This document shows, piece by piece, positions 15,441 to 61,056 of a stretch of 64,000 bases of DNA; the first letter of the stretch is position 1; each line of letters starts with the position of its first letter. The stretch spans positions 62,001 through 126,000 of the forward strand of contig JAWMAR010001141.1 of the NCBI GenBank assembly GCA_036785375.1. The letters are read 5' to 3'. Both the position numbers and the translations under genes were made by a program. The stretch comes from Leucoraja ocellata. Lineage: Eukaryota. Under the pieces are notes generated by a model. That model searched no databases. It saw only the letters and a list, made by a program, of their open reading frames with translations, and was not told the DNA's origin.

Positions 15441-15596
15441 TTAATTATTATCAGTGAGAATTGTTGCGTACACAACTTCTGCGGCACCTTGCCTCTTGGC
15501 TTGTCCTTGTGTGTTCAGATCCTGAAGGTTCATGTAAGTATTATCCGTGTTAGCTGGAGGACGGGTTGTCACGGTGGTATAAATGACAGGGGTTTC
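15441..15596 (-). CDS. Gene 2 terminal cytoplasmic exon with ITIM motifs
   Basis: ETPVIYTTVTTRPPANTDNTYMNLQDLNTQGQAKRQGAAEVVYATILTDNN*. Acceptor tttctcacttgactccaaag is phase 0, matching exon 16276-16328 (GSNGQRIMSQQNPADSFK|gtaagg). Confidence 0.85.
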   Translation of the reverse strand, partial: ETPVIYTTVTTRPPANTDNTYMNLQDLNTQGQAKRQGAAEVVYATILTDNN

Positions 15597-18500: not shown

Positions 18501-21500
18501 GTTAATTGACTTCTGTAAATTGTTCCTAATGTGTAGAACAGAACTGGTGTATGGGGTGATCGCTGCTCAGAGCGGACTCGGTGGGCCAAAGGGCCCATTT
18601 CCACGCTGTATCTTTAAACTGAGCTGAACTGAACTTAACTAATTTGTTCTCAGGTGAGGCTGAGTTGACTCTTCGAGTTACTGACCTGTTTCCATCTGAT
18701 GAACCAGAAGCCTCATTGGAACTTGCTGCCTTGGTGGTTGGTGTACCTTGAGGCATGGTGGTCAGAGTGGTTGTGGTGGAAGCCTTTGTGATTATTGTTG
18801 TAGAGGTGGTGCTGACCATGTCTGGGCTGCTTGTTGGAGATCCTTGTGGAGATAAAGTGAATGAAGTTTTTGAACATTAAATGTGTGAAATCACGTTCTG
18901 TGCCACTTTAGTGATGTGTGGGAGATGCCTCAGTTGGCAGCGCTCTTGCTCTGTGTGGGGAGATTCCTGGGTTCAAATCCCAATCCAGACATTTGGGCAA
19001 AGATCCTTCTGAGGCCACCATAGATGGACCAAGCCCCTTGATCTAGACCGGAGGCTCACCCATTAAGATGCCACCAGATTGTCGCAAGCATTCAGAGACT
19101 TCTTTCATGCCCTCCATAGTCCCACAGGCTGTGTTATCTGCCTGCTGCTAGAGTTAGGCACATGTCTTCTACATTGGAGAAGAACTTGGGAGCGGGAGGA
19201 TCCATGGACTATTTTCATTACGCGGACTGAATTCAAAATAATGCAATTTGGTTGGAGGTATCTACCTGAAACATTAACTCTCGTTCTCTCTCCACAGAAG
19301 CTGCCCGACCCGTTGAGTATCTCAACTTGTACAGTTTGTGTGACTCAGTGTAAAGTCTATATCACTCATCTCTTGAGGATTCTTAGTTCATTAGTTCATA
19401 AGTGATAGGGGCAGATTGAGGCCACTTGGCCCATTGAGTCTATTCCGCCTTTCAATCACGGCTGATCTATCTCTCCCTCTCAACCCCATTCTCCTGCCTT
19501 CTCCCCATATTGCTTGACACCCGTACGAATGGAGAACCTGTCAATCTCCACCTGAAAATACCCAATGACTTGGCCCTCATTGGAAACATGGTAAAAGATT
19601 TTCCCTGTACCTCAGTACAGACGACAACAATAAACTGAGCTCATGAATCACCAAAGTTTGTGAGACACAAGGAATTGCAGGTGCTGGAATTTTAAGCAAA
19701 ACACAAAGTGCTGGAGAAACTCTGCAGGTCAGGCAGCATCCGTTGTAGAAATGAACTGACACTCTTTAGTGTTGGGTCCCTTCTTCAGATGTTGTGGGTG
19801 TGACAGTGACGGGCAGGGGGAGAGGGTGAGGGGGCACCAGAGGTTCTGGCTGTTCCCCTGCTCCAGTGAGGGGCGGCAGAGGTTCTAGACCCGGAGCGAT
19901 CGTCTTTGGGGAAATGAGCCGCCAGCAGCAGAACCGCCGGTCCCCATTGATGAGCCCCCCCCCCCCCCCCCCACACACACTGCTCCTGGGACAGTGGGCT
20001 CTTGGTGTGGCCCCATGAGCCGGGACCCCAGTAAATGTGCTCCCCCCTCCTTCACCCCGACCCCCGGGGATGTGGCACCGAGTCACCGTCAGCACCGAGG
20101 CCGGGAATTCCCAGGCTGGAATGTTCACATCTGGGAGAGTGAGGAGAGATCGTCAACGTACCTTCAGAAACCGTCAATGAGATGGAGGTCCTTTCATTGC
20201 TTGAAAATATTCCCTTTACAATCACACACCAGTAGCGTCCTTCATCACTCTTCTCCAGGTTGTCGATGGTTACTGAAACTATCAGTTGTGTTTTGTTATC
20301 ACTCATCGATGTTCTCCTATATTGTGGTGAGTCATCAGTAGAAACCACGGTATCAGATATTATGTAATAGTAACCTTTCTTCCATAGCTTCTTGTTGTCA
20401 GTGTATTCCTGACCATACTGACATTCCACTGTGACCGACTGCCCCAACTCTCCCCTCACCTCCTTGGGTCCAGTTATTCCCCTTAACCCTGTGGACACAT
20501 TAATGATGAAAGATCACTCACACTGCAGCAACACAAGCTGAGGTTTAACAATAAAAAACATGTCATTTGTGCTGTTCAGACAGGTTCATGGTTTCGCATA
20601 GATCATGTGTAGCAAGGAACTGCAGGTGCTGGTTTACACCAAAGATAGACACAAAGTGCTGGAGTAACTCGGCGGATCAGGCAGAATCTCTGGAGAAAAT
20701 GGATAGGTGTCCTTTTTGGGTCGGGACCATTCTTGATCTCCCGGTTGCCAACCCTGTCCATGTCCCTTCCCATTCCCACACTGACCTTTCTGTCCTGGGC
20801 CTCCTCCATTGCCAGAGTGAGGCCACATGCAAATTGGAGGAACCGCACCTCATATTGGGCTCAGGTAGTTTACAACCCAACGGTTTGAACGTTGGTTCTC
20901 TAATTTTAAGTATCTTCTACTAACCTGCCCCCTCCCCCATTGACTCCTATCTCCACCCGGGTTTCCCACCACCTGCCCCAGTGAGGGGCGGCAGAGGTTC
21001 TGGTCCCGGAGCGATCGTCTTCGTGGAAATGAGCCGTCAGCAACAGAACCGCCGGTAGATGGGATCTTCCGTGGGGCTGGTGTCTGACAGCCCCCCCCCC
21101 CCCCCCCCCCCCCCCATACTGCTCCAGCGACAGTGAGCTCTTGGTGTGGCCCCACGGGCCGGGACCCCAGTAAGTGAGTTATCCACCCAACCCCCTTACC
21201 GCGACCCCCCCGGGGATGTGGCACCGAGTCACCGTCAGGACCGAGGCCGGGAATTCACAGGCTGGAATTTTCACATCTGGGAGAGTGAGGAGAGATCGTC
21301 AACGTACCTTCAGAAACCGTCAATGAGATGGAGGCCGATTCAATGAATGAATGTTTTCCCTTTACTATCACACACCAGTAGAGTCCTTCATCACTCTTCT
21401 CCAGGTTGTCGATGGTGACTGAAACTATCGGTTGTTCTTTGTCATCAGTCATCGATGTTCTCCCTTGTTGTGGGTGATCAGTAGAAACCACGGTAGAAGA

Positions 21501-24298
21501 TGGAAGGAAATAATCACCTTTACTCCATAGCTTGTCGTTGTCTTTGTATTTCCGATCATACTGACATTCCACAGTGACCGACTGCCCCAACTGTCCCCTC
21601 ACCTCCACGGCTTCAGTTATTCCCCTTGATCCTGTTGGCACATTAATGATGAAAGATCACTCACACTGCAGCAACACAAGCTGAGGTTTAACAATAAAAA
21701 ACATGTCATTTGTGCTGTTCAGACAGGTTCATGGTTTCGCATAGATCATGTGTAGCAAGGAACTGCAGGTGCTGGTTTACACCAAAGATAGACACAAAGT
21801 GCTGGAGTAACTCAGCGGGACGGGCAGCATCTCTGGAGAAACCGACGGGTGATGTTTCCTCGCCCATTCCTTCTCTCCAGAGATGCTGCCCGTCCCGCTG
21901 AGTTACTCCAGCATTTTGTGTCTCTCTTCTTCTGCATAGATCCTGTTGCACTTTAATGCTTTTCCCGCTGGTGTTAATTCCCATTTCACCGGGGATTGTT
22001 CCCCAAGTTCCAGTGAAAGCAGAACTGAGTTCCTTCTTGAACACTTTGTCTACTCCACTGCGATATCTATCTTCCAGCATCTGCAGTTCCTTCTTGAACA
22101 CTGCTTCTGAATCTACCTGGCGCCCAGATCCTCCTTCCCTGTGGGCGTGGCTTGACCGGAGTGGTGGTCATGTGACAGGAAGCCAACCTGTCACTCACTC
22201 TGACCCACCCTGTGTTCAATCTCACTACAACCCACTTCCCCATTGAACTAGTAGAAACAAGGAACTGCAGATGCTGGTTAATGTACAAAAGGACACAAAG
22301 TGCCGGAGTAACACAACGGGACAGGAACTATCTCTGGAGAAAGAGGAACTCTCTGGGTGAAAAGATATTTCCTCATCTGAGTCCTCAATGGCCTACCCGT
22401 TATTGAGGTCACAACCTTAAACTGGACAGGAACTATCTCTGGAGAAAGTGGATAGATGATGATTCATAGAAACATATAAACATAGAAAATAGGCGCAGGA
22501 GGAGATGATTCGGCCCTTCGAGCCGGCACTGCCCAGTTCTGCTTGCTCCCGTTATCCCATGATTCCATTAGCCCTAAGAGCTAAATCTAACTCTCTCTTG
22601 AATACATCCAGTGAATTGGCCTCCACTGCCCTCTGTGGCAGAGAATTCTACAGATTCACAACTCTGGGTGAAAAGGTTTCTACCCCATCTTAACTTAATT
22701 GTGTGTGTTAGTTGTCTGTGCGTTATGTGTGTGTGTGTGTGTGTGGGAGGGAGGGAGGGAAGTAGAGAAAGAAGGGATGGAGCGAATGGGACCCTCTGGA
22801 TACATGGATAGGACAGATTTGAAAGGACTTGGACCAAACATGGACAGGTGGGACTAGTGTTGCTGAGACATGTTGGCCGGTGTGGGCAAGAAGGGCCGAA
22901 GGGCCTGTTTCCACACTGTATCACTCTATGACTCTAACACATGTGAAACTCTGCAGATTCAGGAGCTGGGGTGGAGACACATCATCGCATCAGTCCAGGT
23001 CGGCTCACAAGCCACAAGACAAATGCCTTGAAGGAGAACTCAGAGGCTTTGGAAAGCACAGTGTGTAGAACAGCTCGAGCAGCAGAGTCTGTTGTAAGGC
23101 AGCTGGTTTTTCTCAGAAGGGAGAGATTACCACAACTTCTCCAAATGCTAAATTGGACAGTCACTCTGGTGCTTCCTCATTTGAGATGACGCCTGTTCCC
23201 AATGGCTGGCTTTCACAGGTTTTTTCTTTGAATGTGCTAAGGTTTAGGTTCAACATTTCCCATTGCAGTGCGTGGAGGGAGTGCCGTGTGTCTTTGATAG
23301 ACACTAAAATGCTGGAGTAACGCAGCGGGTCAGGGGGCATCTCTGGAGAGAAGGAATGGGTGACGTTTCGGGTCGAGACCTTTCTTCAGACCCACAGTCA
23401 GGGAGGGAGGAAGTCAAGAGATATGCAAGGGGTAAAGCATTTAGCTGATCTGCTGTCAAGTCACTGAGCACACAGCATCACAACAGTCATTAGTGCAGGG
23501 AAGAACAAGTCTGCAAGCATTTTATCTTTAGCAGCTCGTAGCCCAGTTGTCTGCTCTGTGGCTCAAAATAATTCAAGGTGCTGGCAAATAATTCTGAAGA
23601 ACAGATCACAAGTTCATTAGTACTAGGAGCAGAATTAGGCCATTTGGCCCATCAAGTCTACTCTCCCCCATTCAATTATGGCTGATCTATCTTTCCCTCT
23701 CAACTAAATCCTCCTGCCTTTTCCCCAGGTCTCCTGACACCAGTACTGATCAAGAATCTATCCCATCTCGGCCTTAGAAATACCTATTGATGGCCTCCGC
23801 AGTCTGTGGCAATGAATTTCCACAGTTTCTGTCTCACAAAATTCCTCCTCATCTCCTTCCTAAAGCAACGCCCTTTAATTCTGAAGCTGCGACCTCTGGT
23901 CCTAGAGTCTCCCACTAGTGTAAACATCCTCACCCCATCCACTCTATCCAGGCCTTTCACTATTCAGTAAGTTTCAATGAGGTCCACAAGGCAAGGCAAG
24001 CTGTAGATAGTTATCTCCCGACTTGGGCTGCAACACAACACGACAACAACCACTGATGGAAGTCTCTACAGGAACTAACGAGTGTTGAGCAATTCATCAT
24101 CAGCTCCCCACACAGTACAGAGAGGTCTGTGGTTACAAATAATTCAAGGCGTTGGTAAATAATTCCTCAGAACAGAGCATTTTGTAAAACAACGATTTAC
24201 CTGGTGTGAGACCAACAGCGACAAGAACCAACAGAGCGACCTGTTCCCCTGGATCTGGGCCATCTCTGGTGGGTGAATTCTCCCTGTCCCACCGCCAT
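15441..24298 (-). CDS. Gene 2: inhibitory CD300/pIgR-like (MDIR-type) receptor, about 407 aa if the leader is intact. Exons 24201-24298 (leader, +1 frameshift), 21308-21631 (Va), 20162-20488 (Vb), 18686-18842 (mucin stalk), 17983-18092 (TM), 16276-16328, 15441-15596 (ITIM tail)
   Basis: GT-AG introns with consistent phases from Va to the stop (1,1,2,1,0). TM VVLPIALTIVFLLFIAGIILCV then KMRQRKK. Tail contains VIYTTV, TYMNL and VVYATI. The leader is 98 nt against 97 nt in the gene 3 paralog. Confidence 0.8.
15705..15740 (-). ncRNA. Minimal hammerhead ribozyme motif in a Penelope-derived repeat (also 1297-1332 and 56649-56685 on +)
   Basis: CUGAAGA-A-GGGU(CUCG)ACCC-GAAAC-GUC core with a palindromic minimal stem III. 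Confidence 0.55.
16618..17575 (-). mobile_element. CR1 LINE endonuclease/linker fragment in a gene 2 intron
   Basis: EDFLECIRDGFLYQYVEEPT...LDWVLCNE; PEDWEKFR. Confidence 0.8.
17983..18092 (-). CDS. Gene 2 transmembrane exon (uncharged)
   Basis: VTFSWKVVLPIALTIVFLLFIAGIILCVKMRQRKKT; acceptor ttttgcag, donor gtaagt, phase 2-1. Confidence 0.88.
18686..18842 (-). CDS. Gene 2 Ser/Thr-rich mucin-like stalk exon
   Basis: GSPTSSPDMVSTTSTTIITKASTTTTLTTMPQGTPTTKAASSNEASGSSDGNR; 157 nt, acceptor ctttatctccacaag, donor gtcagt. Confidence 0.85.
20162..20488 (-). CDS. Gene 2 V-set Ig exon Vb
   Basis: GQSVTVECQY...W...SDEGRYWC...ISLTVSE; 327 nt, phase 1-1, ccacag/gtacgt. Confidence 0.92.
21308..21631 (-). 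CDS. Gene 2 V-set Ig exon Va
   Basis: GQSVTVECQYDRKY...W...SDEGLYWC...ISLTVSE; 324 nt, phase 1-1. Confidence 0.92.
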
Positions 24299-32934: not shown

Positions 32935-34227
32935 CTGAAAAGCTAAACGATGATTATTGGGCGTCATTTCCGTCAGAATAACAATATTGATATAACGATT
33001 ACCCTTCATTTTTATCTTATTCTTCTAACGCGTGTCCACAGTTCATTACGTAATCATTTAACCGTTTTTACATCCCCATTGTTCAATGGTTCAATGGTAC
33101 TTTATTGTCTCATGCACATGCGTACAGTGACATTTCTTTTGTATAGAATTCAGTAAAAATCTTACTTGATATAAGCACAGCTGAAGCTAAGAACAAGAGT
33201 ATTAATAGCAGATTATATGATGCAGTACACAAGAGTTGCCACATTACTGGCAGTATCTTATATTCTTAAACATCAAACTGGGCTTAAAGGCCATTTTATT
33301 TGGGTTTAAAGGCCCGTTGTCATGGAGACGGCACTGGGTGGGAGTTGCAGGGGTCGGCCTGGCCTGGCGATGTTGTCGGTGCCTCCACCACCGCTCCGTG
33401 CCGCTGCAGGCCGTGTCCGATCCGCGCGCTCGTCCCCGACTCTGTGGGGCCTCCAGCGGCACCCGATCCACTGGCTGCTGCAGGGCCTCCAGCAGCCCAC
33501 TCGCACTCCGCCCACACCTCGACCCACCAACGCACCCTTTTCCCCTGCCTCCCACGGCCGTCTCCATGCGAGGTGAGGCCTCACCCAGCCAGCTCACCGG
33601 CGCTGTTCCTCTCCTTCCTCCACCACTGCCGACCCCATCTCCAAGGTCTTGGCTTTTTTTTCCTTGAATAACAATTAAAACACAGTTTATAATCTCCACC
33701 ATCAAATTTTACCCGAGGAAATGACCCAGGGCGGCACAGTGGCGCAGCGGTAGAGTTGCTGCCTTACAGCGCCAGAGACCCGGGTTTGATCATGACTACG
33801 GGTGCTGTCTGTACGGAGTTTGTATGTTCTGCCTGTGACAGCGTGGGTTTTATCTGGGTGCTCCGGTTTCTTACCACAATCCAAAGACGTGTAGTTTTGT
33901 AGGTTAATTGGCCTCTGTATAATTGTAAATTGTCCCTCGTGTGTAGGATAGTGCGAGTGTACGGGGTGATCATTGGTCGGCGCGGACTTGATTGGCTGTA
34001 TACCCTTTAATAATATCTGACAATGTGCACTTTAACCACGTGTGATTTTTTCAATTACAAATCTCAAATTGTGGAATACAGAGGCAAATAAATAAATGAA
34101 GGGTCTTTGTCCCAAACATTATGGAGGGCGCTGTATGTCCACACTTTATCTCTACAAATCGAAAGTAAATTCCCATCATTTCCAGTTGAATTTAATGTGA
34201 ACATCAGAGTGAAGAGATTGCAAACTT

Positions 34228-34342: not shown

Positions 34343-35391
34343 CTGGAAATCCAAGGAAATATTATTACTTCCACACAGAGTTACCACAGATCAACGCTGG
34401 CAATTTTCTTTCATCATATTGCCCCTGGAATCATTCAGTGTGATCCAAGGTTTTGGCGTGGACATTGGTGAGATGTTGATATCGCAACATGCACCCATTC
34501 CTTGGAGGTGTTCCATGACTACATACATTAACAACTTAGATGTTCATTTTGATGGTCAGACATAGAGCACGAAAACATGTCCTTTGACCCAATTTCCCCC
34601 ACGCCGACCAAGATGTCCTTATCTACACTAGTCCCATCTGCCGGCCTTAGATGTTAATGTTGGAAGTATGATTTACGAGTTTACAGATTACACCAACATT
34701 GTCTCATTTTGGATAGTACGATAATCATAGACCACAGAGGGATAAGAAGCAACTGGTATGTTGGGCAGAGCAATGCCAGCAGGTATTGAACTGTGATAAG
34801 TGTGAAGTTATTTGTTTTTGGCATCATGTAAGGGTAGACATTCACAATGGTAGGGCCACTGGGTGTACTAAGGACAGAGGGACTTTAGTCAGGGCCAAGG
34901 AGTATTTATCAATGGACTGGAATGTGATCAGCCACGCTTTCTCAAAGTACTGGGACTTTGAGTCACTGACCTGTGTCGAGGCGATGAACCAGGAGTCCCT
35001 GGTGGTCGATGCTTCTGGAGGCAGAGTGGGTGTGGTGGTTCCTGAGGTGGTGGTGACCATATTTTAATCCAGTTTAGTTTAATTTTGAGATATAGCGCGG
35101 AAACAGGCCCGACGGCCCATGGAGTCCACACCGACCATCGATCCTCGCACACTAACACTAGGCTACACACACACTAGGGTCAATTGACACATACGCCAAG
35201 CCAATCTACTTACATACCTGTATGTCTTTAGAGTGTTGGAGGAAATCAAAGATCTCAGAGAAAACCCATGCGGTCGTGGGGATAACGTACAAACCCCGTA
35301 CAGGCAGCACCTGTAGTCGGGATCGAACCTGGGTCTCTGGCGCTACAAGCGTTGTAAGGCAGCAACTCTACCGCTGCGCCACCGTGCAACC

Positions 35392-35422
<31 letters not shown>

Positions 35423-38400
35423 ACCAAAGTGGTGAGGATATCTGGGTGATATGTTTGAGACCCTTGTGAAGATAAAGTGAATGAAGTCTTTGAACATTAA
35501 ATGTTTATAATCACGTTCTGTGTCACTTTAGTGACGTGTGGGAGATGCTTCAGTTCGGAACGATCTTGCTCTGTGTGGGGAGATTCTTGATTCGAATCCC
35601 AAACCTGAGATTTGAGCAAGGATCCTTCCTAAACCACCATAGATGGACCAAGCCCCTTGATCTAGACATGAGGCTCGCCCATTGAGATGTCAGCTCAGCG
35701 GTAGAGTTGCTGCCTCACAGCACAGTAGACGCGGGGTCGATCCTGATACCGGTGCTGTCAGTGCAGAGTCTGTACGTTCTCCATGTGATCGCAAGAGTTT
35801 ACTCTGGGTTCTCCAGTTTCCTCCCACATTCCAAAGACGTGCGGGTTTGTAGTAAGTTGCCCCTAGTGTGTAGAACAGAACTGGTGTATGGGGTGATCGC
35901 TGCTCAGAGCGGACTCGGTGGGCCAAAGGGCCCATTTCCATGCTGTATCTTTAAACTGAGCTGAATTGAACTGAACTAATTGGTTCTCAGGTGAGGCTGA
36001 GTTGGCTCTTCGAGTTACTAACCTGTTTGTAGGTGTTGAACCAGGAGACTCTGTGGAACTTGCTGCCTTGGTGGTTGGTGCATCTTGAGGCATGGTGGTC
36101 AGAATGGTTGTGGTGGAAGCCTTTGTGCTTATTGTTGCAGAGGTGGTGCTGACCATGTCTGGGTGGCTTGTTGGAGATCCTTGTGGAGATAAAGGGAATG
36201 ACGTTTTTGAACATTAAATGTCTGAAAGTACGTTCTGTGCCACTTTAGTGATGTGTGGGAGATGCCTCAGTCGGGAGCGCTCTTGCTCCGTGTGGGGAGA
36301 TTCCTGGGTTCAAATCCCAATCCAGAGATTTGAGCAAAGATCCTTCTGAGGCCACCATAGATGGACCAAGCCTCTTGATCTAGACCGGAGACTCACCCAT
36401 TAAGATGCCACCAGATGGTCACAAGCATTCAGAGACTTCTTTCATGCCCTTCAGAGTCCCACAGGCTGTGTTATCTGCCTGCTGCTAGAGTTAGGCACAT
36501 GTCTTCTACACTGGAGAAGAACTTGGGAGCGGGAGGATCCATGGACTATTTTCATTACGCGGACTGAATTGGAAATAATGCAATTTGGTTGGAGGTATCA
36601 CCTGAAACATTAACTCTCGTTCTCTCTCCACAGAAGCTGCCCGACCCGTTGAGTATCTCATCTTGTAGAGTTTGTGTGACTCAGTGTAAAGTCTATATCA
36701 CTCATCTCTTGAGGATTCTTAGTTCATTAGTTCATAAATGATAGGGGCAGATTGAGGCCATTTGGCCCATTGAGTCTATTCCACCTTTCAATCACGGCTG
36801 ATCTATCTCTCCCTCTCAACCCCATTCTCCTGCCTTCTCCCCATATCGCTTGACACCCGTACTAATTGAGAACCTGTCAATCTCCACCTGAAAATACCCA
36901 ATGACTTGGCCCTCATTGGAAACATGGTAAAAGCTTTTCCCTGTACCTCAGTACAGACGACAACAATAAACTGAGCTCATGAATCACCAAAGTTTGTGAG
37001 ACACAAGGAATTGCAGGTGCTGGAATTTTAAGCAAAACACAAAGTGCTGGAGTAACTCAGCAGGTCAGGCAGCATCCGTTGTAGAAATGAACTGACAATG
37101 TTTAGTGTTGGGTCCCTTCTTCAGATGTTGTGTGTGTGGTGGGTGTGACAGTGACGGGCAGGGGGAGAGGGTGAGGGGGCACCAGAGGTTCTGGCTGTTC
37201 CCCTGCTCCAGTGAGGGGCGGCAGAGGTTCTGGACCCGGAGCGATCGTCTTTGGGGAAATGAGCCGCCAGCAGTAGAACCGCCGGTCCCCATTGATGCCC
37301 CCCCCCCCCCACACACACACACACACACTGCTCCTGGGACAGTGGGCTCTTGGTGTGGCCCCATGGGCCGGGACCCCAGTAAATGTGCTCCCCCCTCCTT
37401 CACCCCGAACCCCCGGGGATGTGGCACCGAGTCACCGTCAGGACCGAGGCCGGGAATTCCCAGGCTGGAATGTTCACATCTGGGAGAGTGAGGAGAGATC
37501 GTCAACGTACCTTCAGAAACCGTCAATAAGATGGAGGTATTTTCATTGCTTGAAAATATTCCCTTTACAATCACACACCAGTAGCGTCCTTCATCACTCT
37601 TCTCCAGGTTGCCGATGGTGACTGAAACTATCCGATGTGTTTTGTTATCAGTCATCGATGTTCTCCCTCGTCGTGGGTGATCAGTAGAAACCACGGTAGA
37701 AGAAAACAGGTAATAATCACCTTTACTCCATAGCTTGTCGTTGTCTCTGTATTCCTGACCATACGGACATTCCACAGTGACCGACTGCCCCAACTCTCCC
37801 CTCACCTCCTTGGGTCCAGTTATTCCCCTTGACCCTGTGGGCACATTAATGATGAAAGATCACTCACACTGCAGTAACACAGGGGGCGGCAGAAGTTCTG
37901 GTCCCGGAGCGATCGTCTTCGAGGAAATGAGCCGTCAGCAACAGAACCGCCGGTAGATGGGACCTTCCGTGGGGCAGGTGTCTGACAGCCCCCCCCCCCC
38001 CCCCCCCCCCATATTGCTCCTGGGACAGTGAGCTCTTGGTGTGGCCCCACGGGCCGGGACCCCAGTAAGTGAGTTATCCACCCAACCCCCTTACCGCGAC
38101 CCCCCGGGTATGTGGCACCGAGTCACCGTCAGGACCGAGGCCGGGAATTCCCAGGCTGGAATTTTCACATCTGGGAGAGTGAGGAGAGATCGGCAACTTA
38201 CCTTCAGAAACCGTCAATGAGATGGAGGCCGAATCGTTTCCCTTTACAATCACACACCAGTAGAGTCCTTCATCACTCTTCTCCAGGTTGTCGATGGTGA
38301 CTAAAACTATCCGTTGTGTTTTGTCATCAGTCATCGATGTTCTCCCTCGTCGTTGGTCATCAGTAGAAACCACAATATAAGATTTCTGGTAATAATCACC

Positions 38401-50050: not shown

Positions 50051-53000
50051 CGTAGGTAGTTGTCTCCCTTCTCTACAGGGAGCTAGCTGTGTGCAATTTG
50101 GTTGCACACAACACGACGACAATCGTTGATGGAACGATCGAGTGTTGAGCAGTTTATCATTAGCACCTCACCCAGTACAGTGAGGCCGGTGGCTAAACAT
50201 CATTCAAGGCGCTGAGTAAATAATTCTAAAGAACAGAGCATTTTGTAATGGTTCGCACCAGAATAGTGGAGGATCTCCTTGTTCTGGGGCAAGTGGTATC
50301 TCATCAACCAAGGACACCAAAGTCATCTGTAGGATAGTTGTTGTTTTTTAAAGGGAACTTGTTGTGTCCAAATTAGATGCACACAAGTCTGCAAGGGCGG
50401 AATGTAGAAACAAGGAACTGCAGATGCTGGTTTATACCACATATAGGCACAAAGTGTTGGAGCATCTCAGCAGGTCAAGCAGCTTCTCTGGACAAAAAGG
50501 ATGGGTAACATTTCTCGATGGGACCCTTCAGAGTGGTCCTGACCTCCCAACTACTCCATTCGAGACCTTGGAACTATCTTTAATTGGATTTTACTAGACT
50601 GCATCTTGCATTGAACATTATTCCCTGTATCCTGTACCTGTGGACGGCTCGATTGTAATCATATACAGTGTTTTCACTGACTGGGTAGCATACACACAGA
50701 AAAGCTTTTCACTGCACCTCGGTACACGTGACTATAATTGGCTAAACTAAAGAGGTTGCCACAGATTCCTTGAATGCAAAAATGAAGTCATTGAGACTTT
50801 CAGAATGGGTTGGGTTTCACATGGTTTTTCAATGTGTGACCTGTGGTCTAGGTTCAACATTTCCCACGCTGTTTCTAGCAGGAGTCCTGTGTGACTTTAC
50901 CACGCTAACCGAGCCACACCAAGGCCCAGTGTTAGGTTCTGCAGTGCAAGCTCAGTAGGTGAAAACTATTGAGTGAGTTAGAGAGATGTTGGTTCAGTTC
51001 CCACTCCAGAACGCCGAGCACGGAGTGAGAGTTGTACTGAGGGAGCTCCGCAATGGAAACATAGAAGCATAGAAAATAGGCGCTGGAGTAGGCCATTTGG
51101 CCCTTCGAACCAGCACCGCCATTCAATATGATCGTGGCAGATCAACATAAATCAGTACCCAGTTCCTGCTCTCTCCCCATATCCCTTGATTCCGTTTGTT
51201 CTAAGCACTGTGTCTAAAGTTGCTGGAGGTGCTGTCACTCTGATGAGGCATTTAGCTGGCCTGCTGCTCTGCTGTCTGCTCTCACAAGCCTGCTCTCTCT
51301 CTTCAGGGCGGCACGGTGGTGCAGCGGTTTGCTGCTGCCTCACAGCGCCAGAGACCCGGGTTCGATCCTCTCTACAGGTGCTGTCTGTGTGGAGTTTGAA
51401 TGTTCTACCTGTGACCTCATGGGTTTCCTCCAGGTGCTCCGGCTTCCTCCCACATCCCTAATCCATGCGAGTTTGTGGGTTAAATACCTCTGCAAGATTG
51501 TCGCAAATGTGTAGGGAATGGATGACAAAGTGGGATAACAGAACTAGTGTGTGTACAGGTAGACAACAATGCTGGAGAAACTCAGCGTTTTTGTCTACCT
51601 TCGCTTTTCCAGCATCTGCTGTTCCTTCTTAAACATAGTGTGTACAGGTGATCAGTGGTCGGCATGGACTCGGTGGATCAATGGGCCTGTTTCCATTCGC
51701 TATCTCTAAACCAAACTAATTCTACTCTTATCACTTATGACTTTATGACAAAAATTCAGCCATCTTTTATTACATTGGATTATTTTAATCATTATTCAAT
51801 GTGCAGGGTTTCACACAGCAATTCAATTGGTAGTAAAGTTAAAAGTTCACATTCTGGAGAGCCAGCTTTGAGTTCTAGTCTATGTTCTGCTGTCTTTTGT
51901 GTGAATGTCAGGATGTACAGACGTGTCTGCAAACACAGGTACAGAATTTGGCCATTTGCTCCATCGATTCTACTCCGCCATTCAATCATGGATGATCTAT
52001 CTTTCCCACTCCATCCCATTCTCCTGCCTTCTCCCCTCAACCTTTGACACCCTGAGTAAACATGTCAATCTCCAATTTAAAAATATCCATTGACTTGGCC
52101 TCCACAGCCGCCTGTGGCAATTAATTCCACAGATTCATCACCCTCTGGCTAAAGAAATTCCTCCTCAAGTGGTCAAGGTAGATTGGACATAGGTGTGGTG
52201 TGGTGATGCTGTAGGGTCAAGGTGATGAGATTTGTACATCTCCAACTGGTGAACACCCTCTCTGGCCCTGAAAAGCTAAACGATGATTATTGGGCGTCAT
52301 TCCGTCAGAATAACAATATTGATATAACGATTACCCTTCATTTTTATCTTATTCTTCTAACACGTGTCCACAGTTCAATACTTGTAATCATTTAACCGTT
52401 TTTATATCCCCATTGTTCAATGGTTCAATGGTACTTTATTGTCTCATGCACATGCGTACAGTGACATTTCTTTTGTATAGAATTCAGTAAAAATCTTACT
52501 TGATATAAGCACAGCTGAAGCTAAGAACAAGAGTATTAATAGCAGATTATATGATGCAGTACACAAGAGTTGCCACATTACTGGCACTATCTTATATTCT
52601 TAAACATCAAATTGGCTTAAAGGCCCGTTTTATTTTGGGCTTAAAGGCCTATTATCGTGGAGACGGCACTGGGTGGGAGTTGCAGGGGTCGGCCTGGCCT
52701 GGCGATGTTGTCGGTGCCTCCACCACCGCTCCGTGCCGCTGCAGGCCGTGTCCGATCCGCGCGCTCGTCCCCGACCTCTGTGTGACCTCCAGCGGCACCC
52801 GATCCACCGGCTGCTGCAGGACCTCCAGCAGCCCACTCGCAGTCCGCCCACACCTCGACCCACCAACGCACCCTTTTCCCCTCGCCTCCCACGGCCGTCT
52901 CCATGCGAGGTGAGGCCTCACCCAGCCAGCTCACCGGCGCTGTTCCTCTTCTTCCTCCACCACTGCCGACCTCATCTCCAAGGTCTTGGCTGTTTTTTTC

Positions 53001-53565: not shown

Positions 53566-53680
53566 TCACCTTTTCAAAGTTGTCACACAGCTGATGGAAA
53601 CCGGGAAGAGAAGCAGAATTCCAAAGAGTACCCAGCGTAACACACCCCAAACACGGCAAACGATGTTCAGCATGGTGTCC
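53566..53680 (-). CDS. Gene 4 Arg-containing transmembrane exon
   Basis: Same translation as 34228-34342. Confidence 0.82.
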
Positions 53681-56600
53681 CTGGAAATCCAAGGAAATAT
53701 TATTACTTCCACACAGAGTTACCACAGATCAACGCTGGCAATTTTCTTTCATCATGTTGCACACGGAATCATTCAGTGTGATTCAAGGTTGTGGCTTAGA
53801 CATTGGTGAGATGTTGATATCGCAACATGCACCCATTCCTTGGAGGTGTTCCACGACTACATACATTAACAACTTAGATGTTCATTTTGATGGTCAGACA
53901 TAGAGCACGAAAACATGTCCTTTGACCCAATTTCCCCCACGCCGACCAAGATGGCCTTATCTACACTAGTCCCATCTGCCGGCCTTAGATGTTAATGTTG
54001 GAAGTATGATTTACGAGTTTACAGATTACACCAACATTGTCTCATTTTGGATAGTACGATAATCATAGACCACAGAGGGATAAGAAGCAACTGGTATGTT
54101 GGGCAGAGCAATGCCAGCAGGTATTGAACCATGATAAGTGTGACGTTATTTGTTTTTGGCATCATGTAAGGGTAGACATTCATAATGGTAGGGCCACTGG
54201 GTGTACTAAGGACAGAGGGACTTTAGTCAGGGCCAAGGAGTATTTATCAATGGACTGGAATGTGATCAGCCACGCTTTCTCAAAGTACTGGGACTTTGAG
54301 TCACTGACCTGTGTCGAGGCGATGAACCAGGAGTCCCTGGTGGTCGATGCTTCCGGAGGCAGAGTGGGTGTGGTGGTTCCTGAGGTGGTGGTGACCATAC
54401 TTTAATCCAGTTTAGTTTAGTTTTGAGATATAGCGCGGAAACAGGCCTGACGGCCCATGGAGTCCACACTGACCAGCGATCCTCGCACACTAACACTAGG
54501 CTACACACACTAGGGGCAATTGACACATACGCCAAGCCAATCTACTTACATACTTGTATGTCTTTAGAGTGTTGGTGGAAATCAAAGATCTCAGAGAAAA
54601 CCCATGCGGTCATGGGGATAACGTACAAACCCCGTACAGGCAGCACCTGTAGTCGGGATCGAACCTGGGTCTCCAGCGCTACAAGCATTGTAAGGCAGCA
54701 ACTCTACCGCTGCGCCACCATGCAACCCCCCACACACACACACACACACACGCACCAAAGTGGTGAGGATATCTGGGTGATATGTTTGAGACCCTTGTGA
54801 AGATAAAGTGAATGAAGTCTTTGAACATTAAATGTTTATAATCACGTTCTGTGTCACTTTAGTGACGTGTGGGAGATGCTTCAGTTCGGAACGATCTTGC
54901 TCTGTGTGGGGAGATTCTTGATTCGAATCCCAAACCTGAGATTTGAGCAAGGATCCTTCCTAAACCACCATAGATGGACCAAGCCCCTTGATCTAGACAT
55001 GAGGCTCGCCCATTGAGATGTCAGCTCAGCGGTAGAGTTGCTGCCTCACAGCACAGTAGACGCGGGGTCGATCCTGATACCGGTGCTGTCAGTGCAGAGT
55101 CTGTACGTTCTCCATGTGATCGCAAGAGTTTACTCTGGGTTCTCCAGTTTCCTCCCACATTCCAAAGACGTGCGGGTTTGTAGTAAGTTGCCCCTAGTGT
55201 GTAGAACAGAACTGGTGTATGGGGTGATCGCTGCTCAGAGCGGACTCGGTGGGCCAAAGGGCCCATTTCCATGCTGTATCTTTAAACTGAGCTGAATTGA
55301 ACTGAACTAATTGGTTCTCAGGTGAGGCTGAGTTGGCTCTTCGAGTTACTAACCTGTTTGTAGGTGTTGAACCAGGAGACTCTGTGGAACTTGCTGCCTT
55401 GGTGGTTGGTGCATCTTGAGGCATGGTGGTCAGAATGGTTGTGGTGGAAGCCTTTGTGCTTATTGTTGCAGAGGTGGTGCTGACCATGTCTGGGTGGCTT
55501 GTTGGAGATCCTTGTGGAGATAAAGGGAATGACGTTTTTGAACATTAAATGTCTGAAAGTACGTTCTGTGCCACTTTAGTGATGTGTGGGAGATGCCTCA
55601 GTCGGGAGCGCTCTTGCTCCGTGTGGGGAGATTCCTGGGTTCAAATCCCAATCCAGAGATTTGAGCAAAGATCCTTCTGAGGCCACCATAGATGGACCAA
55701 GCCTCTTGATCTAGACCGGAGACTCACCCATTAAGATGCCACCAGATGGTCACAAGCATTCAGAGACTTCTTTCATGCCCTTCAGAGTCCCACAGGCTGT
55801 GTTATCTGCCTGCTGCTAGAGTTAGGCACATCTTTTCTACATTGGAGAAGAACTTGGGAGCGGGAGGATCCATGGACTATTTTCATCACGCGGACTGAAT
55901 TGGAAATAATGCAATTTGGTTGGAGGTATTTACCTGAAACATTAACTCTCATTCTCTCTCCACAGAAGCTGCCCGACCCGTTGAGTATCTCATCTTGTAC
56001 AGTTTGTGTGGCTCAGTGTAAAGTCTATATCACTCATCTCTTGAGGATTCTTAGTTCATTAGTTCATAAGTGATAGGGGCAGATTGAGGCCATTTGGCCC
56101 ATTGAGTCTATTCCACCTTTCAATCATGGCTGATCTATCTCTCCCTCTCAACCCCATTCTCCTGCCTTCTCCCCATATCGCTTGACACCCGTACTAATGG
56201 AGAACCTGTCAATCTCCACCTGAAAATACCCAATGACTTGGCCCTCATTGGAAACATGGTAAAAGCTTTTCCCTGTACCTCAGTACAGACCACAACAATA
56301 AACTGAGCTCATCAATCACCAAAGTTTGTGAGACACAAGGAATTGCAGGTGCTGGAATCTTGAGCAAAACACAAAGTGCTGGAGTAACTCAGCAGGTCAG
56401 GCAGCATCCGTGGAAGGAATGAACTGACAATGTTTAAGGTTGGGTCCCTTCTTCACCGGAGGAACAGCACCTCATATTCCGTTTGGGGAGTCTGCACCCC
56501 GGGGGCATGAACATCGACTTCTCCCAATTCTGTTAGTCCTTGCTGTCTCCTCCCCTTCCTCAGCTCCCCTGCTGTCCCCTCCCACCCTCCAGCCTTCCGG

Positions 56601-56942
56601 CTACTCCTCCTTTTCCCTTTCTTGTCCCCACCCACCCCCACCCCTGATCAGTCTGAAGAAGGGTTTCGGCCCGAAACGTTGCCTATTTCCTTCGCTCCAT
56701 AGATGCTGCTGCACCCGCTGAGTTTCTCCAGCTTTTCTGTGTAACCTCCCTTCTTCAGATGTTGTGTGCGTGGTGGGTGTGACAGTGATGGGCAGGGGGA
56801 GAGGGTGAGGGGGCACCAGAGGTTCTGGCTGTTCCCCTGCTCCAGTGAGGGGCGGCAGGGGTTCTGGACCCGGAGCGATCGTCTTTGGGGAAATGAGCCG
56901 CCAGCAGCAGAACCGCCGGTCCCCATTGATGAGCCCCCCCCC

Positions 56943-56973
<31 letters not shown>

Positions 56974-59900
56974 ACACTGCTCCTGGGACAGTGGGCTCTT
57001 GGTGTGGGCCCATGGGCCGGGACCCCAGTAAATGTGCTCCCCCCTCCTTCACCCCGACCCCCGGGGATGTGGCACCGAGTCACCGTCAGGACCGAGGCCG
57101 GGAATTCCCAGGCTGGAATGTTCACATCTGGGAGAGTGAGGAGAGATCGTCAACGTACCTTCAGAAACCGTCAATGAGATGGAGGTCCTTTTATTGATTG
57201 GAAATATTCCCTTTACAATCAGCACACACCAGTAGTATCCTTCATCACTCTTCTCCAGGTTGTCGATGGTGACTGAAACTATCCGTTGTTTTTTGTCATC
57301 AGTCATCGATGTTCTCCTATATTGTGGGTCATCAGTAGAAACCACGGTAGAAGAATTTGTGTAATAATAACCTTTACTCCATAGCTTGTCGTTGTCTTTG
57401 TATTTCCGATCGTACCGACATTCCACAGTGACCGACTGCCCCACCTCTCCCCTCACCTCCTCGGGTCCAGTTATTCCCCTTGACCCTGTGGGCACATTAA
57501 TGATGAAAGATCACTCACACTGCAGCAACACAAGCTGTGGTTTAACAATAAAAAACATGTCATTTGTGCTGTTCAGACAGGTTCATGGTTTCGCATAGAT
57601 CATGTGTAACAAGGAACTGCAGGTGCTGGTTTACACCAAAGATAGACACAAAGAGCCGGAGTAACTCAGTGGGACAGACAGCATCTCGGGAGAAACCGAC
57701 GGGTGATGTTTCCTCACCCATTTCCTTCTCTCCATAGATGCTGCCCTTCCTGCTGAGTTACTCCAGCATTTTGTGTCTCTCTCCTTTTGCATAGATCCTG
57801 GTGCACTTTAATGCTTTTCCCGCTGGTGTTAATTCCCATTTCACTGGGATTATTGTTGTAGAGGTGGTGGTGACCATGTCTGGGCGGCTTGTTTGAGACC
57901 CTTGTGGAGATAAAGTGAATGACGTTTTTGAACATTAAAAGTCTGAAAGCACGTTCTGTGCCACTTTAGTGATGTGTCGGAGATGCCTCAGTCGGGAGCG
58001 CTCTTGCTCCGTGTTGGGAGATTCCTGGGTTCAAATCCCAATCCAGAGATTTGAGCAAGGATCCTTCTGAGGCCCCCATAGATGGACCAAGCCCCTTGAT
58101 CTAGTCATCTCATGAGGATTCTTCGTTCATACGTTATAGAAACATAGAAAATAGGTGCAAGAGGAGGCCATTCAGCCCTTCGAGCCTGCACCGCCATTCA
58201 CTGTGATCAGGGCTGAACGTCCCCAATCAATAACCCGTGCCTGCCTTCTCCCCATATCCCTTGATTCCACTAGCCCCTGGAGCTCTATCTAACTCTCTCT
58301 TAAATCCATCCAGTGATTTGGCCTCCACTGCCCTCTGTGGCACGGAATTCCACAAATTCACAACTCTCTGGGTGAAAAAGTTTTTTCTCACCGCAGTCTG
58401 AAATGGCCTCCCCTTTATTCTAAGGCTGTGGCCCCTGGTTCTGGACTTGCCCAACATTGGGAACATTTTTCCTTCATCAAGCTTGTCCAGTCCTTTTATA
58501 ATTTTATAAGTTTCTATAAGAAACCCACTCATCCTTCTAAACTCCAGTTTTGAGCCTAGTCTTTTCAATCTTTCCTCATATGACAGTCCCGCCATCCCAG
58601 GGAGCAATCTCGTGAACCTACGCTGCACTGCCTCAATCACAAGGATGTTCTTCCTCAAATTAGACCAAAACTGTACACAATACTCCAGATGTGGTCTTAC
58701 CAGAGCCTGATACAACTGCGGAAGAACCCCTCTACTACTGTACTGAAATCGTCTTGTTATGAAGTTCATGTGATAGGGGCAGAATGCGGCCATTTGGCTT
58801 ATTTATGTCTACTCCGCCATTCAATCATGGCTGATCTATCTCTCCCTCTCAACCCCATTATCTTCCCTTCTCCCCATATCGCTTGACACTCATACTAATC
58901 GAGAACCTGTGAATCTTAAAAATACCCAATGATTTGGCCTTCATTGGAAACATGGTAAAAGCTTTTCCCTGTACCTCAGTACAGACGACAACAATAAACT
59001 GAACTCATGAATCACCAAAGTTTGTGAGACACAAGGAATTGCAGGTGCTGGAATCTTGAGCAAAACACAAAGTGCTGGAGTAACTCAGCAGGTCAGGCAG
59101 CATCTGTGGAAGGAATGAACTGACAATGTTTAGTGTTGGGACCTTTCTACAGATGTTGTGTGTGTGGTGGGTGTGACAGTGACGGGCAGGGGGAGAGGGC
59201 ACCAGAGGTTCTGGCTGTTCCCCTGCCCCAGTGAGGGGCGGCAGGGGTTCTGGACCCGGAGCGATCGTCTTTGGGGAAATGAGCCGCCAGCAGCAGAACC
59301 GCCGGTCCCCATTGATGAGCCCCCCCCCCCCCCCCCCCCCCACACACACACTGCTCCTGGAACAGTGGGCTCTTGGTGTGGCCCCATGGGCCGGGACCCC
59401 AGTAAATGTGCTCCCCCCTCCTTCACACCGACCCACGGGGATGTGGCACCGAGTCACCGTCAGGACCGAGGCCGGGAATTCCCAGGCTGGAATGTTCACA
59501 TCTGGGAGAGTGAGGAGAGATCGTCAACGTACCTTCAGAAACCGTCAATAAGATGGAGGTCCTTTTATTGATTGGAAATATTCCCTTTACAATCAGCACA
59601 CACCAGTAGTATCCTTCATCACTCTTCTTCAGGTTGTCGATGGTGACTGAAACTATCCGTTGTGTTTTGTTATCACTCATCGATGTTCTCCTATATTGTG
59701 GGTCATCAGTAGAAACCACGGTAGAAGAATTTGTGTAATAATAACCTTTACTCCATCGCTTCTTGTTGTCACTGTATTCCTGACCATACTGACATTCCAA
59801 AGTGACCGACTGCCCCAACTCTCCCCTCACCTCCTTAGGTCCAGTTATTCCCCTTGACCCTGTGGACACATTAATGATGAAAGATCACTCACACTGCAGC

Positions 59901-61056
59901 AAGAGGTTCTGGACCCGGAGCGATCGGCTTTGGGGAAATGAGCCGCCAGCAGCAGAACCGCCGGCAGCACAAGCTGAGGTTTAACAATAAAAAACATGTC
60001 ATTTGCGCTGTTCAGACAGGTTCATGGTTTTGCATAGATCATGTGTAGCGAGGAACTGCAGGTGCTGGTTTAAACCAAAGATAGACACAAAGTGCTGGAG
60101 TAACTCGGCGGATCAGGCAGAATCTCTGGAGAAAATGGATAGGTGTCCTTTTCGGGTTCAGACCATTCTTGATCTCCCGGTTGCCAACCCTGTCCATGTC
60201 CCTTCCCATTCCCACACTGACCTTTCTGTCCTGGGCCTCCTCCATTGCCAGAGTGAAGCCACATGCAAATTGGAGGAACCGCACCTCATATTGGGCTCAG
60301 GTAGTTTACAACCCAACGGTTTGAACGTTGGTTCTCTAATTTTAAGTATCTTCTACTAACCTGCCCCCTCCCCCATTGACTCCTATCTCCACCCGGGTTT
60401 CCCACCACCTGCCCCAGTGAGGGGGCGGCAGAGGTTCTGGTCCCGGAGCGATCGTCTTCGTGGAAATGAGCCGTCAGCAACAGAACCGCCGGTAGATGGG
60501 ACCTTCCGTGGGGCTGGTGTCTGACAGCCCCCCCCCCCCCCCATATTGCTCCAGCGACAGTGAGCTCTTGGTGTGGCCCCACGGGCCGGGACCCCAGTAA
60601 GTGAGTTATCCACCCAGCCCCGTTACCGCGACCCCCGGGGATGTGGCACCGAGTCACCGTCAGGACCGAGGCCGGGAATTCACAGGCTGGAATGTTCACA
60701 TCTAGGAGAGTGAGGAGAGATCGTCAACGTACCTTCAGAAACCTTCAATGAGATGGAGACCAATTCAATGGGTGAATCGTTTCTCTTTACTATCACACAC
60801 CAGTAGAGTCCTTCATCACTCTTCTCCAGCTTGTCGATGGTGACTAAAACTATCTGGTGTGTTTTGTCATCAGTCATCGATGTTCTCCGTTGTTGTGGGT
60901 CATCAGTAGAAACCACAGTATAAGATTTCTGGTAAGAATCACCTTTCCTCCACAGCTTCCTGTTGTCCTTGTATTCCTGACCATACTGACATTCCACTGT
61001 GACCGACTGCCCCAACTCTCCCCTCACCTCCTCGGGTTCAGTTATTCCGCTTGACC
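53566..61056 (-). CDS. Gene 4 (5'-partial): activating-type receptor with three V exons. Exons 60733-61056 (Va), 59533-59859 (Vb), 57159-57485 (hybrid V), 55354-55510 (stalk), 53566-53680 (Arg-TM); leader predicted just beyond the window end
   Basis: All V exons are open and phase 1-1. Stalk and TM translate identically to gene 3. Window position about 63960 corresponds to about 42000 in the gene 3 unit, placing the leader roughly 600-700 nt past 64000. Confidence 0.72.
56456..56746 (+). mobile_element. Penelope-like 3' fragment inserted only in this copy
   Basis: Nearly identical to 1105-1394; 11-bp TSD tcccttcttca (56445-56455 and 56747-56757); empty sites at about 19780 and 37115. Confidence 0.88.
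57159..57485 (-). CDS. Gene 4 membrane-proximal hybrid V exon
   Basis: ORF 57049..57495; 327 nt, phase 1-1. Confidence 0.9.
57758..57900 (-). pseudogene. 3'-truncated stalk exon fused to intron sequence (fusion junction about 57850)
   Basis: Intact acceptor, then GSQTSRPDMVTTTSTTII, then a switch to the intron normally upstream of Va; TAA at 57758-57760; no donor seen. Confidence 0.75.
58134..58760 (-). mobile_element. HER1/CR1 LINE 3' fragment
   Basis: ORF 58227..58793 (LVRPHLEYCVQFW...GYGEKAGTGY). Confidence 0.9.
59533..59859 (-). CDS. Gene 4 V exon Vb
   Basis: ORF 59423..59869; 327 nt, phase 1-1. Confidence 0.9.
60733..61056 (-). CDS. Gene 4 V exon Va
   Basis: ORF 60680..61066; 324 nt, phase 1-1. 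Confidence 0.9.

Follow-up and report, generated by a model that had tools for sequence, protein, structure and literature searches.

How an immunoglobulin (Ig) V-set receptor gene comes to carry three V exons, with a truncated stalk exon lodged between the second and the third, is the question raised by gene 4 of a tandem receptor cluster in Leucoraja ocellata. The cluster lies on the minus strand of the 64,000-nucleotide stretch that we analysed (contig JAWMAR010001141.1 of GenBank assembly GCA_036785375.1, positions 62,001 to 126,000; hereafter the window, with coordinates counted from its first base). Seven related V exons are present, three in gene 4 and two each in genes 3 and 2; gene 2 is terminated by a transmembrane (TM) segment and a tail resembling an immunoreceptor tyrosine-based inhibitory motif (ITIM), and genes 3 and 4 by an arginine-bearing TM segment and a short tail. 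An earlier note had read gene 4 as the product of one deletion between two copies, encoding a three-V receptor or a secreted two-V decoy. We find that the feature is genuine, though a modest variation on the chimera formation already known from paired receptors, with fusion as its most likely origin and the decoy doubtful.

The junction in the window is real as described. Sequence resembling a stalk exon and its upstream intron extends to 57848 at 92-94% identity to the stalk regions, and from 57854 on the sequence matches the introns that precede the first V exon (Va) of genes 2, 3 and 4 at 92-93%. These flank matches agree with the proposal that the stalk begins normally at 57900 and switches at about 57850, in a shared gattatt, to a pre-Va-type intron. 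The last 19 intron bases ahead of the acceptor at 57900 are those of the gene 2 stalk; the full 7-nt overlap is exact only for the gene 2 stalk versus the gene 3 intron, and the intact stalk of gene 4 itself offers only 5 consecutive overlap bases. Because 7-mers are common to stalk and intron at 35 of 620,157 position pairs, the overlap is improbable as a chance event, even allowing for a choice of parents. Each flank has substitutions of its own, 8 private ones across 254 columns to the left and 12 across 363 to the right, and neither has 1-bp indels; the three pre-Va introns have 2-6 private substitutions, versus 12 in 359 columns of the intron 5' of the third V exon (Vc).

All 2,047 bases between the second V exon (Vb) and Vc (57486-59532) are accounted for by a post-V intron, a piece of a long interspersed nuclear element (LINE), a pre-stalk intron, the truncated stalk (hereafter the stub) and a pre-V intron. 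A leader query against the whole window matched only at 42900-42600 and 24472-24174, in genes 3 and 2, and thus nowhere between Vb and Vc; the independent leader whose presence between 57485 and 59533 the earlier note had considered was looked for and not found. A TM segment is likewise absent there. The leader exon of gene 4 itself lies beyond the window (past 64000), and no third leader copy occurs inside it.

Three V exons in gene 4, at the places first proposed (Va at 60733, Vb at 59533 and a third downstream), were recognized by Pfam V-set (E-values of about 1e-12 to 1e-13) and have AG/GT ends; a full stalk and the Arg-TM follow, as had been noted, together with a tail exon that had not been listed and that encodes about 23 residues. 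Vb and Vc are both in phase 1, and splicing past the stub (Va-Vb-Vc-stalk-TM-tail) leaves 437 codons open, bearing out the claim of an in-frame V-V-V-stalk-Arg-TM protein, here with its tail. This product is identical at 418 of 435 aligned residues to P0004, an NCBI 'polymeric immunoglobulin receptor-like' model from Leucoraja erinacea (468 aa with leader) that has the same V order and does not include the stub; across Va and Vb the two differ at 1 residue in about 215. When scored against the U1 donor consensus, the real donors match 7-8 of nine bases, and each of the 25 GT sites from 57900 to 57485 matches five or fewer; none of the four GT sites ahead of the stop in the stub would serve as an in-frame rescue donor. 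A further stalk relic in gene 4, whose acceptor (54793) is intact, is already skipped in P0004. A three-V membrane receptor is thus the likely product, as predicted from exon structure and phase, and a three-V form is already in public annotation as a predicted model. Coordinates are collected in Table 1.

Table 1. Features of gene 4 and related V exons of neighbouring genes, in window coordinates.
Feature	Position	Strand	Evidence
V exon Va, first Ig V-set domain	60733..61056	-	Pfam V-set 1e-12; 99.1% to P0004 V1
V exon Vb	59533..59859	-	Pfam V-set 1.3e-13; 100% to P0004 V2
LINE 3' fragment (presumably CR1-type, from its translation) in the intron between Vb and the broken stalk	58136..58763	-	75-79% to other window repeats; missing from three paralogous introns
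Broken stalk exon comprising the initial 53 nt of a stalk; acceptor intact, donor lost	57848..57900	-	92-94% to three intact stalks and upstream intron
Junction with 7-nt microhomology AATAATC (GATTATT on +)	57848..57854	-	Flank alignment
Intron-derived read-through tail and TAA of a hypothetical secreted isoform	57758..57847	-	Frame read; ATTAAA 57812-57807 precedes stop
Pre-Va-type (leader-proximal) intron of the downstream partner	57486..57847	-	12 private substitutions in 359 columns
V exon Vc, mosaic, with first-V-type 5' flank and last-V-type 3' flank	57159..57485	-	89.7% to P0004 V3
80-nt tract equal to Vb, C'-C'' region by convention	57303..57382	-	Identity
78-nt tract equal to Vb, F-G region by convention	57177..57254	-	Identity; has the extra codon of Vb and AATAAA 57195-57190
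Intact Ser/Thr-rich stalk exon S1	55354..55510	-	100% to gene 3 S1; used in P0004
Relic second stalk exon, split by repeat	54311..54793	-	Acceptor intact; phase unfit after S1; not in P0004
TM exon with Arg (LRW motif), activating type	53570..53680	-	Sequence
Short cytoplasmic tail exon and stop, without ITIM	52931..53000	-	Matches P0004 and P0012 tails
Canonical AATAAA, about 300 nt past the full-length stop	52629..52634	-	Hexamer
Gene 3 V exons	38513-38202, 37834-37511	-	Related V exons
Gene 2 V exons	21631-21308, 20488-20162	-	Related V exons

Gene 4 is probably a chimera, to judge from its sequence, in which a microhomology-mediated deletion would have joined the 5' half of a two-V gene to a likely one-V activating gene, with splicing past the stub giving a three-V Arg-TM receptor. 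The break would lie 50 nt into the stalk of the upstream gene and about 370 nt ahead of the downstream V exon, and the deletion would have taken out one TM segment, tail, promoter and leader. Exon definition would fail at a stub that has no donor, and Vb would then be spliced to Vc. The resulting receptor would signal through its TM arginine by way of an adaptor carrying an immunoreceptor tyrosine-based activation motif, like charged-TM paired receptors, and transcripts using the stub acceptor would run into a premature stop, with three or more junctions still downstream of it, and be degraded. Later, in this haplotype, gene conversion from Vb would have replaced two of the loop regions of Vc. 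A one-V downstream partner, or else a second collapsing event, is required, because a join at this place between two two-V genes would yield four V domains; the single deletion of the earlier note fits the 7-nt junction and stands only with such a partner.

Several observations bear on that partner. The 5' flank of Vc is of the first-V type and its 3' flank of the last-V type, an anatomy that would suit either a one-V gene or a Va/Vb recombinant. One-V Arg-TM models exist in thorny skate (P0012 and P0013). The third V domain of P0004 (V3) is identical to the P0012 V domain at 92 of 107 residues and to its own Vb at 81 of 107, and the TM segment and tail of P0004 match those of P0012. The 5' flank of Vc differs from that of Va at 16 of 359 sites and from the other two pre-Va introns at 17 and 20 (the pre-Va introns of genes 2, 3 and 4 differ among themselves by 7-12 sites), and therefore was not copied from that of Va. 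Taken together, the likeness of P0004 V3 to P0012, the shared TM and tail and the equidistant 5' flank favour a single deletion joining a two-V gene with a divergent one-V activating partner. The proposition that Vc is necessarily a Va/Vb recombinant, with two events, was downgraded once the one-V relatives and P0004 V3 appeared. An inhibitory upstream parent was also dropped: the first 16 residues of the stub match four skate models at 15-16 of 16 positions, inhibitory (16/16 and 15/16) and activating (15/16 and 15/16) alike.

Duplication within one gene would leave the same scar, since a microhomology-mediated duplication and an inter-gene deletion produce identical junctions by logic. Had the segment reaching from the pre-Va intron into the stalk been duplicated in tandem, four V exons would first have resulted, and collapse of the second Va-Vb pair by recombination to a hybrid Vc would then have given the same three-V product with no TM segment or leader lost; the earlier statement that the intervening TM and leader are gone holds as to their absence between Vb and Vc, and as to their loss only under fusion. 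In favour of this course, which we judge unlikely though far from negligible, the last 220 columns of Vc have 5 differences from Vb versus 22-39 from other V exons, and Va and Vb lie within a repeat of about 870 bp and 86% identity that would favour collapse. The Vb/Vc units, moreover, share 11 informative sites versus 1 and 1 for the alternative pairings in columns 150-899 (6 of them intronic; 14, 1 and 9 over the whole alignment), a count that fits intragenic duplication too. It requires two events, however, and the likeness of Vc to Vb is patchy and missing from P0004 V3. The 5' flank and first 110 columns of Vc are not nearer to Va, with 15 mismatches versus 8 to Va2 and Vb3, and the stub matches the stalk of gene 4 itself at 12 of 16 residues, although the gene 4 stalk shows signs of recent homogenisation with gene 3.

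Further points weigh against the fusion of a two-V and a one-V gene. The margin by which V3 resembles one-V domains is small (86.0% versus 83.2% for the next best), and a V-domain tree of 31 rows, from which P0001, P0005, P0008, P0011, later matches and one P0009 domain were left out, supports the first-V clade (99/98) and leaves the last-V domains unresolved. The 64-kb window holds no intact one-V parent. The predicted three-V splice has its counterpart in P0004, itself a predicted model. The 17 positions at which P0004 and the window disagree lie mostly from Vc on, and P0004 may thus be a paralog rather than an allele; it represents a different haplotype, a different assembly or a close paralog.

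Vc is a mosaic, with 84% identity to Va and 94% to Vb. At the 27 sites where Vb and P0004 V3 differ, it agrees with Vb at 12 and with V3 at 15, never with neither, and these sites fall into five runs (permutation p = 0.00013). Its Vb-like portions consist of two perfect tracts (57382-57303 and 57254-57177) that are absent from P0004 V3; P0004, a model that includes the leader, is otherwise like gene 4 in its three-V order, single stalk, LRW/Arg TM and tail, and shows a few residue differences in stalk, TM and tail. Because P0012 agrees with P0004 V3 in these tracts, the state in the window is the derived one. The C'-C'' and F-G regions of V-set domains are where ligands usually bind. The loop names given here for Vc rest on Ig V-set convention, since the AlphaFold2 model of Vc (from a 7-sequence alignment; mean predicted local distance difference test score 48.8) was too poor and was discarded. 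From the pattern of identities, gene conversion by Vb is the likely source of the tracts. These tracts, and the stalk identity of genes 3 and 4, could instead be polishing artefacts, a possibility that fits the tract length and the stray single-base frameshifts in genes 2 and 3.

That stalk identity is itself unusual. In the region surrounding the stalk exon (54956-55555 versus about 35620-36220), the alignment of genes 3 and 4 shows 0 substitutions in about 600 columns, where most other segments of this alignment show 1-3%, and their TM exons are identical to each other and different from that of P0004; either recent conversion or an assembly or polishing effect would account for the stalk region. 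The two genes also have in common the repeat-split relic of a second stalk exon (34971-35700 and 54311-55030, minus strand). Near 55030, compared with the two introns of gene 2, the post-S1 intron joins the pre-stalk intron on a short shared motif (TCTCAATGGG), which suggests, on sequence grounds, an older rearrangement of the same kind as the junction at 57848. A 290-nt repeat insertion with a target-site-like duplication (56456-56746; 96% to 1106-1395) occurs solely in the intron from Vc to the stalk and is a potential marker for dating.

The secreted two-V form fares less well. Use of the intact acceptor at 57900 does give the proposed V-V-tail frame, with 46 codons in frame up to the TAA at 57760-57758. 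Vertebrate transcripts with a stop upstream of further junctions are marked for nonsense-mediated decay, and this fate is expected for stub transcripts because neither a strong donor nor a canonical polyadenylation (poly(A)) signal is met until 57195. The soluble isoform of the earlier note therefore amounts to a readable frame with a premature stop, no good donor and no poly(A) signal for 563 nt. Were the stub nevertheless an alternative terminal exon, a stable secreted decoy could be made beside or instead of the receptor by polyadenylation at AATAAA 57195, the first canonical hexamer after the stop, which lies inside the second Vb-derived tract of Vc. We hold this to be improbable: no AATAAA or ATTAAA separates the stop from Vc (that at 57812, an ATTAAA, comes ahead of the stop), the hexamer at 57195 stands about 36 nt upstream of a strong donor, and any product at all requires read-through of its twin in Vb (59569). 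The tail consists of repeat-rich, unmodified intron and contains a single unpaired cysteine; as weak negatives, the 46-residue query matched none of 4 candidates and the tail motif occurred in none of 29 fetched proteins. Soluble relatives of such receptors do exist, among them carp SITR, LILRA3 and sTREM (PMC3031540). A bolder scheme has repeated microhomology-mediated whole-gene fusions adding domains to skate receptors and leaving stalk scars (57900 and 54793), with conversion of the binding loops of Vc also importing the AATAAA that would make the scar a terminal exon. In a haplotype-specific manner, the one gene would then encode an activating receptor with three V domains as well as a secreted decoy with two, both directed at one ligand; this scheme, too, we hold to be improbable.

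Gene 4 might also be a real but silent or decaying chimera that yields no useful protein. Frameshifts in its neighbours (one extra base in the gene 2 leader and one base fewer in the gene 3 tail) point that way, as does the analogous human chimera FCGR2C, described as gathering disabling changes (PMC11659932). However, each of the six gene 4 exons seen is open and bounded by GT/AG, a canonical poly(A) signal comes after them, and the near identity of Va and Vb to P0004 also speaks against decay, which we regard as very improbable. Least credible of the readings is that the junction is an assembly chimera. The cluster is repetitive at 85-97%, and 6 private 1-bp indels occur across the 1096 columns of the gene 3 intron versus 1-2 in other copies, which suggests residual errors; yet the overlap is merely 7 nt, both junction flanks are unique copies and the non-identical NCBI model P0004 has the same three-V order. 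Misassembly of the junction is unlikely.

The rest of the cluster shows further variation between copies. Gene 1 (2153-4051, minus strand) belongs to another subfamily; within provisional exon borders, it has a divergent Ig exon with additional cysteines, a stalk that is short and a TM segment that bears no charge. The gene 2 leader exon (24201-24298) has one more base than that of gene 3 and is out of frame with the gene 2 V exon, reflecting either a null allele or a sequence error; apart from the leader, gene 2 reads open and bears its ITIM. The gene 3 tail exon (33500-33662) has one base fewer in an A-run than that of gene 4, which alters the tail frame. The Va-Vb introns vary by copy: gene 4 has a 62-nt copy of post-V intron before the Vb acceptor (59902-59964), and the gene 3 intron is reduced to 367 nt (37835-38201). 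Three V domains are also present in P0006, an inhibitory L. erinacea model whose last exon is 98% identical to that of gene 2, whereas gene 2 here (15443-21631) has two V exons only, at 81-87% identity to P0006; P0006 represents either another paralog or domain-number variation between haplotypes. Two Narcine isoform models, P0007 and P0008, have near-identical V domains and end in an LRW TM segment or an ITIM tail, and the Rhinoraja model P0002 contains both TM types. These could reflect one gene with alternative activating and inhibitory ends, or merged models.

Domain number varies well beyond gene 4. Relative searches gave 13 matches among 79 candidates and later 29 among 7,999 scored, and the closest named proteins are NCBI 'pIgR-like' and 'CMRF35-like' models from skates and rays. 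Across the 22 chondrichthyan models (isoforms included; the 29 fetched minus 7 turtle or bird pIgRs), the tally is 6 with one V domain, 4 with two, 6 with three, 5 with four and 1 with five. A count of three is thus nothing unusual in this family, whose range is 1-5, and the earlier claim that the deletion created domain-number variation does not hold; the fusion explains one case. What gene 4 offers is a base-level record of a change in Ig-domain count in a chondrichthyan paired-receptor family, by a probable non-homologous fusion whose scar splicing would remove, a route that contrasts with tandem exon duplication and homologous swap, along with piecemeal copying of loop regions from one domain to another within a single gene. 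This should be of use to comparative immunologists and to annotators of the cluster. The understanding of such families is unchanged, as chimeric receptors and variable domain number are known and the three-V protein is annotated; a secreted decoy, if true, would raise the value of the finding.

Batoid pIgR-like and CMRF35-like models (Amblyraja, Rhinoraja, Narcine, Hemitrygon, Hypanus, Mobula and Pristis) have the same leader, V and stalk and the same two TM types, LRW with a short tail or TM with an ITIM tail. A second cysteine pair is missing from skate and Narcine V domains and kept in stingray and Mobula models; all seven window V domains have the two canonical cysteines only. The gene 4 domains are pIgR/CD300-like by sequence, the best of 33 matched PDB sequences being pIgR (3e-24) and CD300lf/CLM-1 (2e-17). 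With CD300/CMRF35, gene 4 shares a V-set most similar to CD300/pIgR and a cluster that pairs activating members with a charged TM (genes 3 and 4) and an inhibitory, ITIM-bearing member (gene 2). It departs from that family, whose ectodomain is a single V, in its three V domains, and it does not have the second cysteine pair (Cx6-9C). As regards conserved synteny, the window yielded no flanking single-copy genes. Several tandem V domains also recall pIgR, which has an uncharged TM segment and a long sorting tail, unlike the Arg TM and short tail of gene 4. MDIR domains are of the I/C2-set, whereas the window domains score best as V-set, and Ig-domain number in MDIRs is reportedly variable (an observation ascribed to Cannon et al. 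2006). No MDIR-named protein was among the 29 relative matches, in a word-limited search compared by name only. A literature search whose coverage excluded subscription papers and supplements returned no description of the gene 4 locus or of its family in skates; PMC6795676, which it brought up, contained nothing of relevance.

The MDIRs of clearnose skate form a multigene set of activating and inhibitory receptors similar to CD300, TREM and pIgR (PMC3031540). Zebrafish NILTs are clustered, have 1, 2, 4 or 6 Ig domains and vary in gene content between haplotypes (bioRxiv 10.1101/2022.04.21.489081); unlike gene 4, they are a teleost family with mostly CxnC motifs. The closest parallels in proposed mode of origin are FCGR2C, which combines the 5' end of FCGR2B with the 3' end of FCGR2A (PMC11659932), and the KIR fusion genes formed by unequal crossover (PMC5290243). 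Both are chimeric receptor genes of a paired-receptor cluster, products of unequal recombination that join the ectodomain of one gene to the signalling end of another, as gene 4 would under fusion. FCGR2C and KIR, however, swap parts by crossover over long homology (non-allelic homologous recombination), whereas gene 4 would join exon to intron at 7 nt, add domains (2+1) and leave behind a stalk pseudo-exon.

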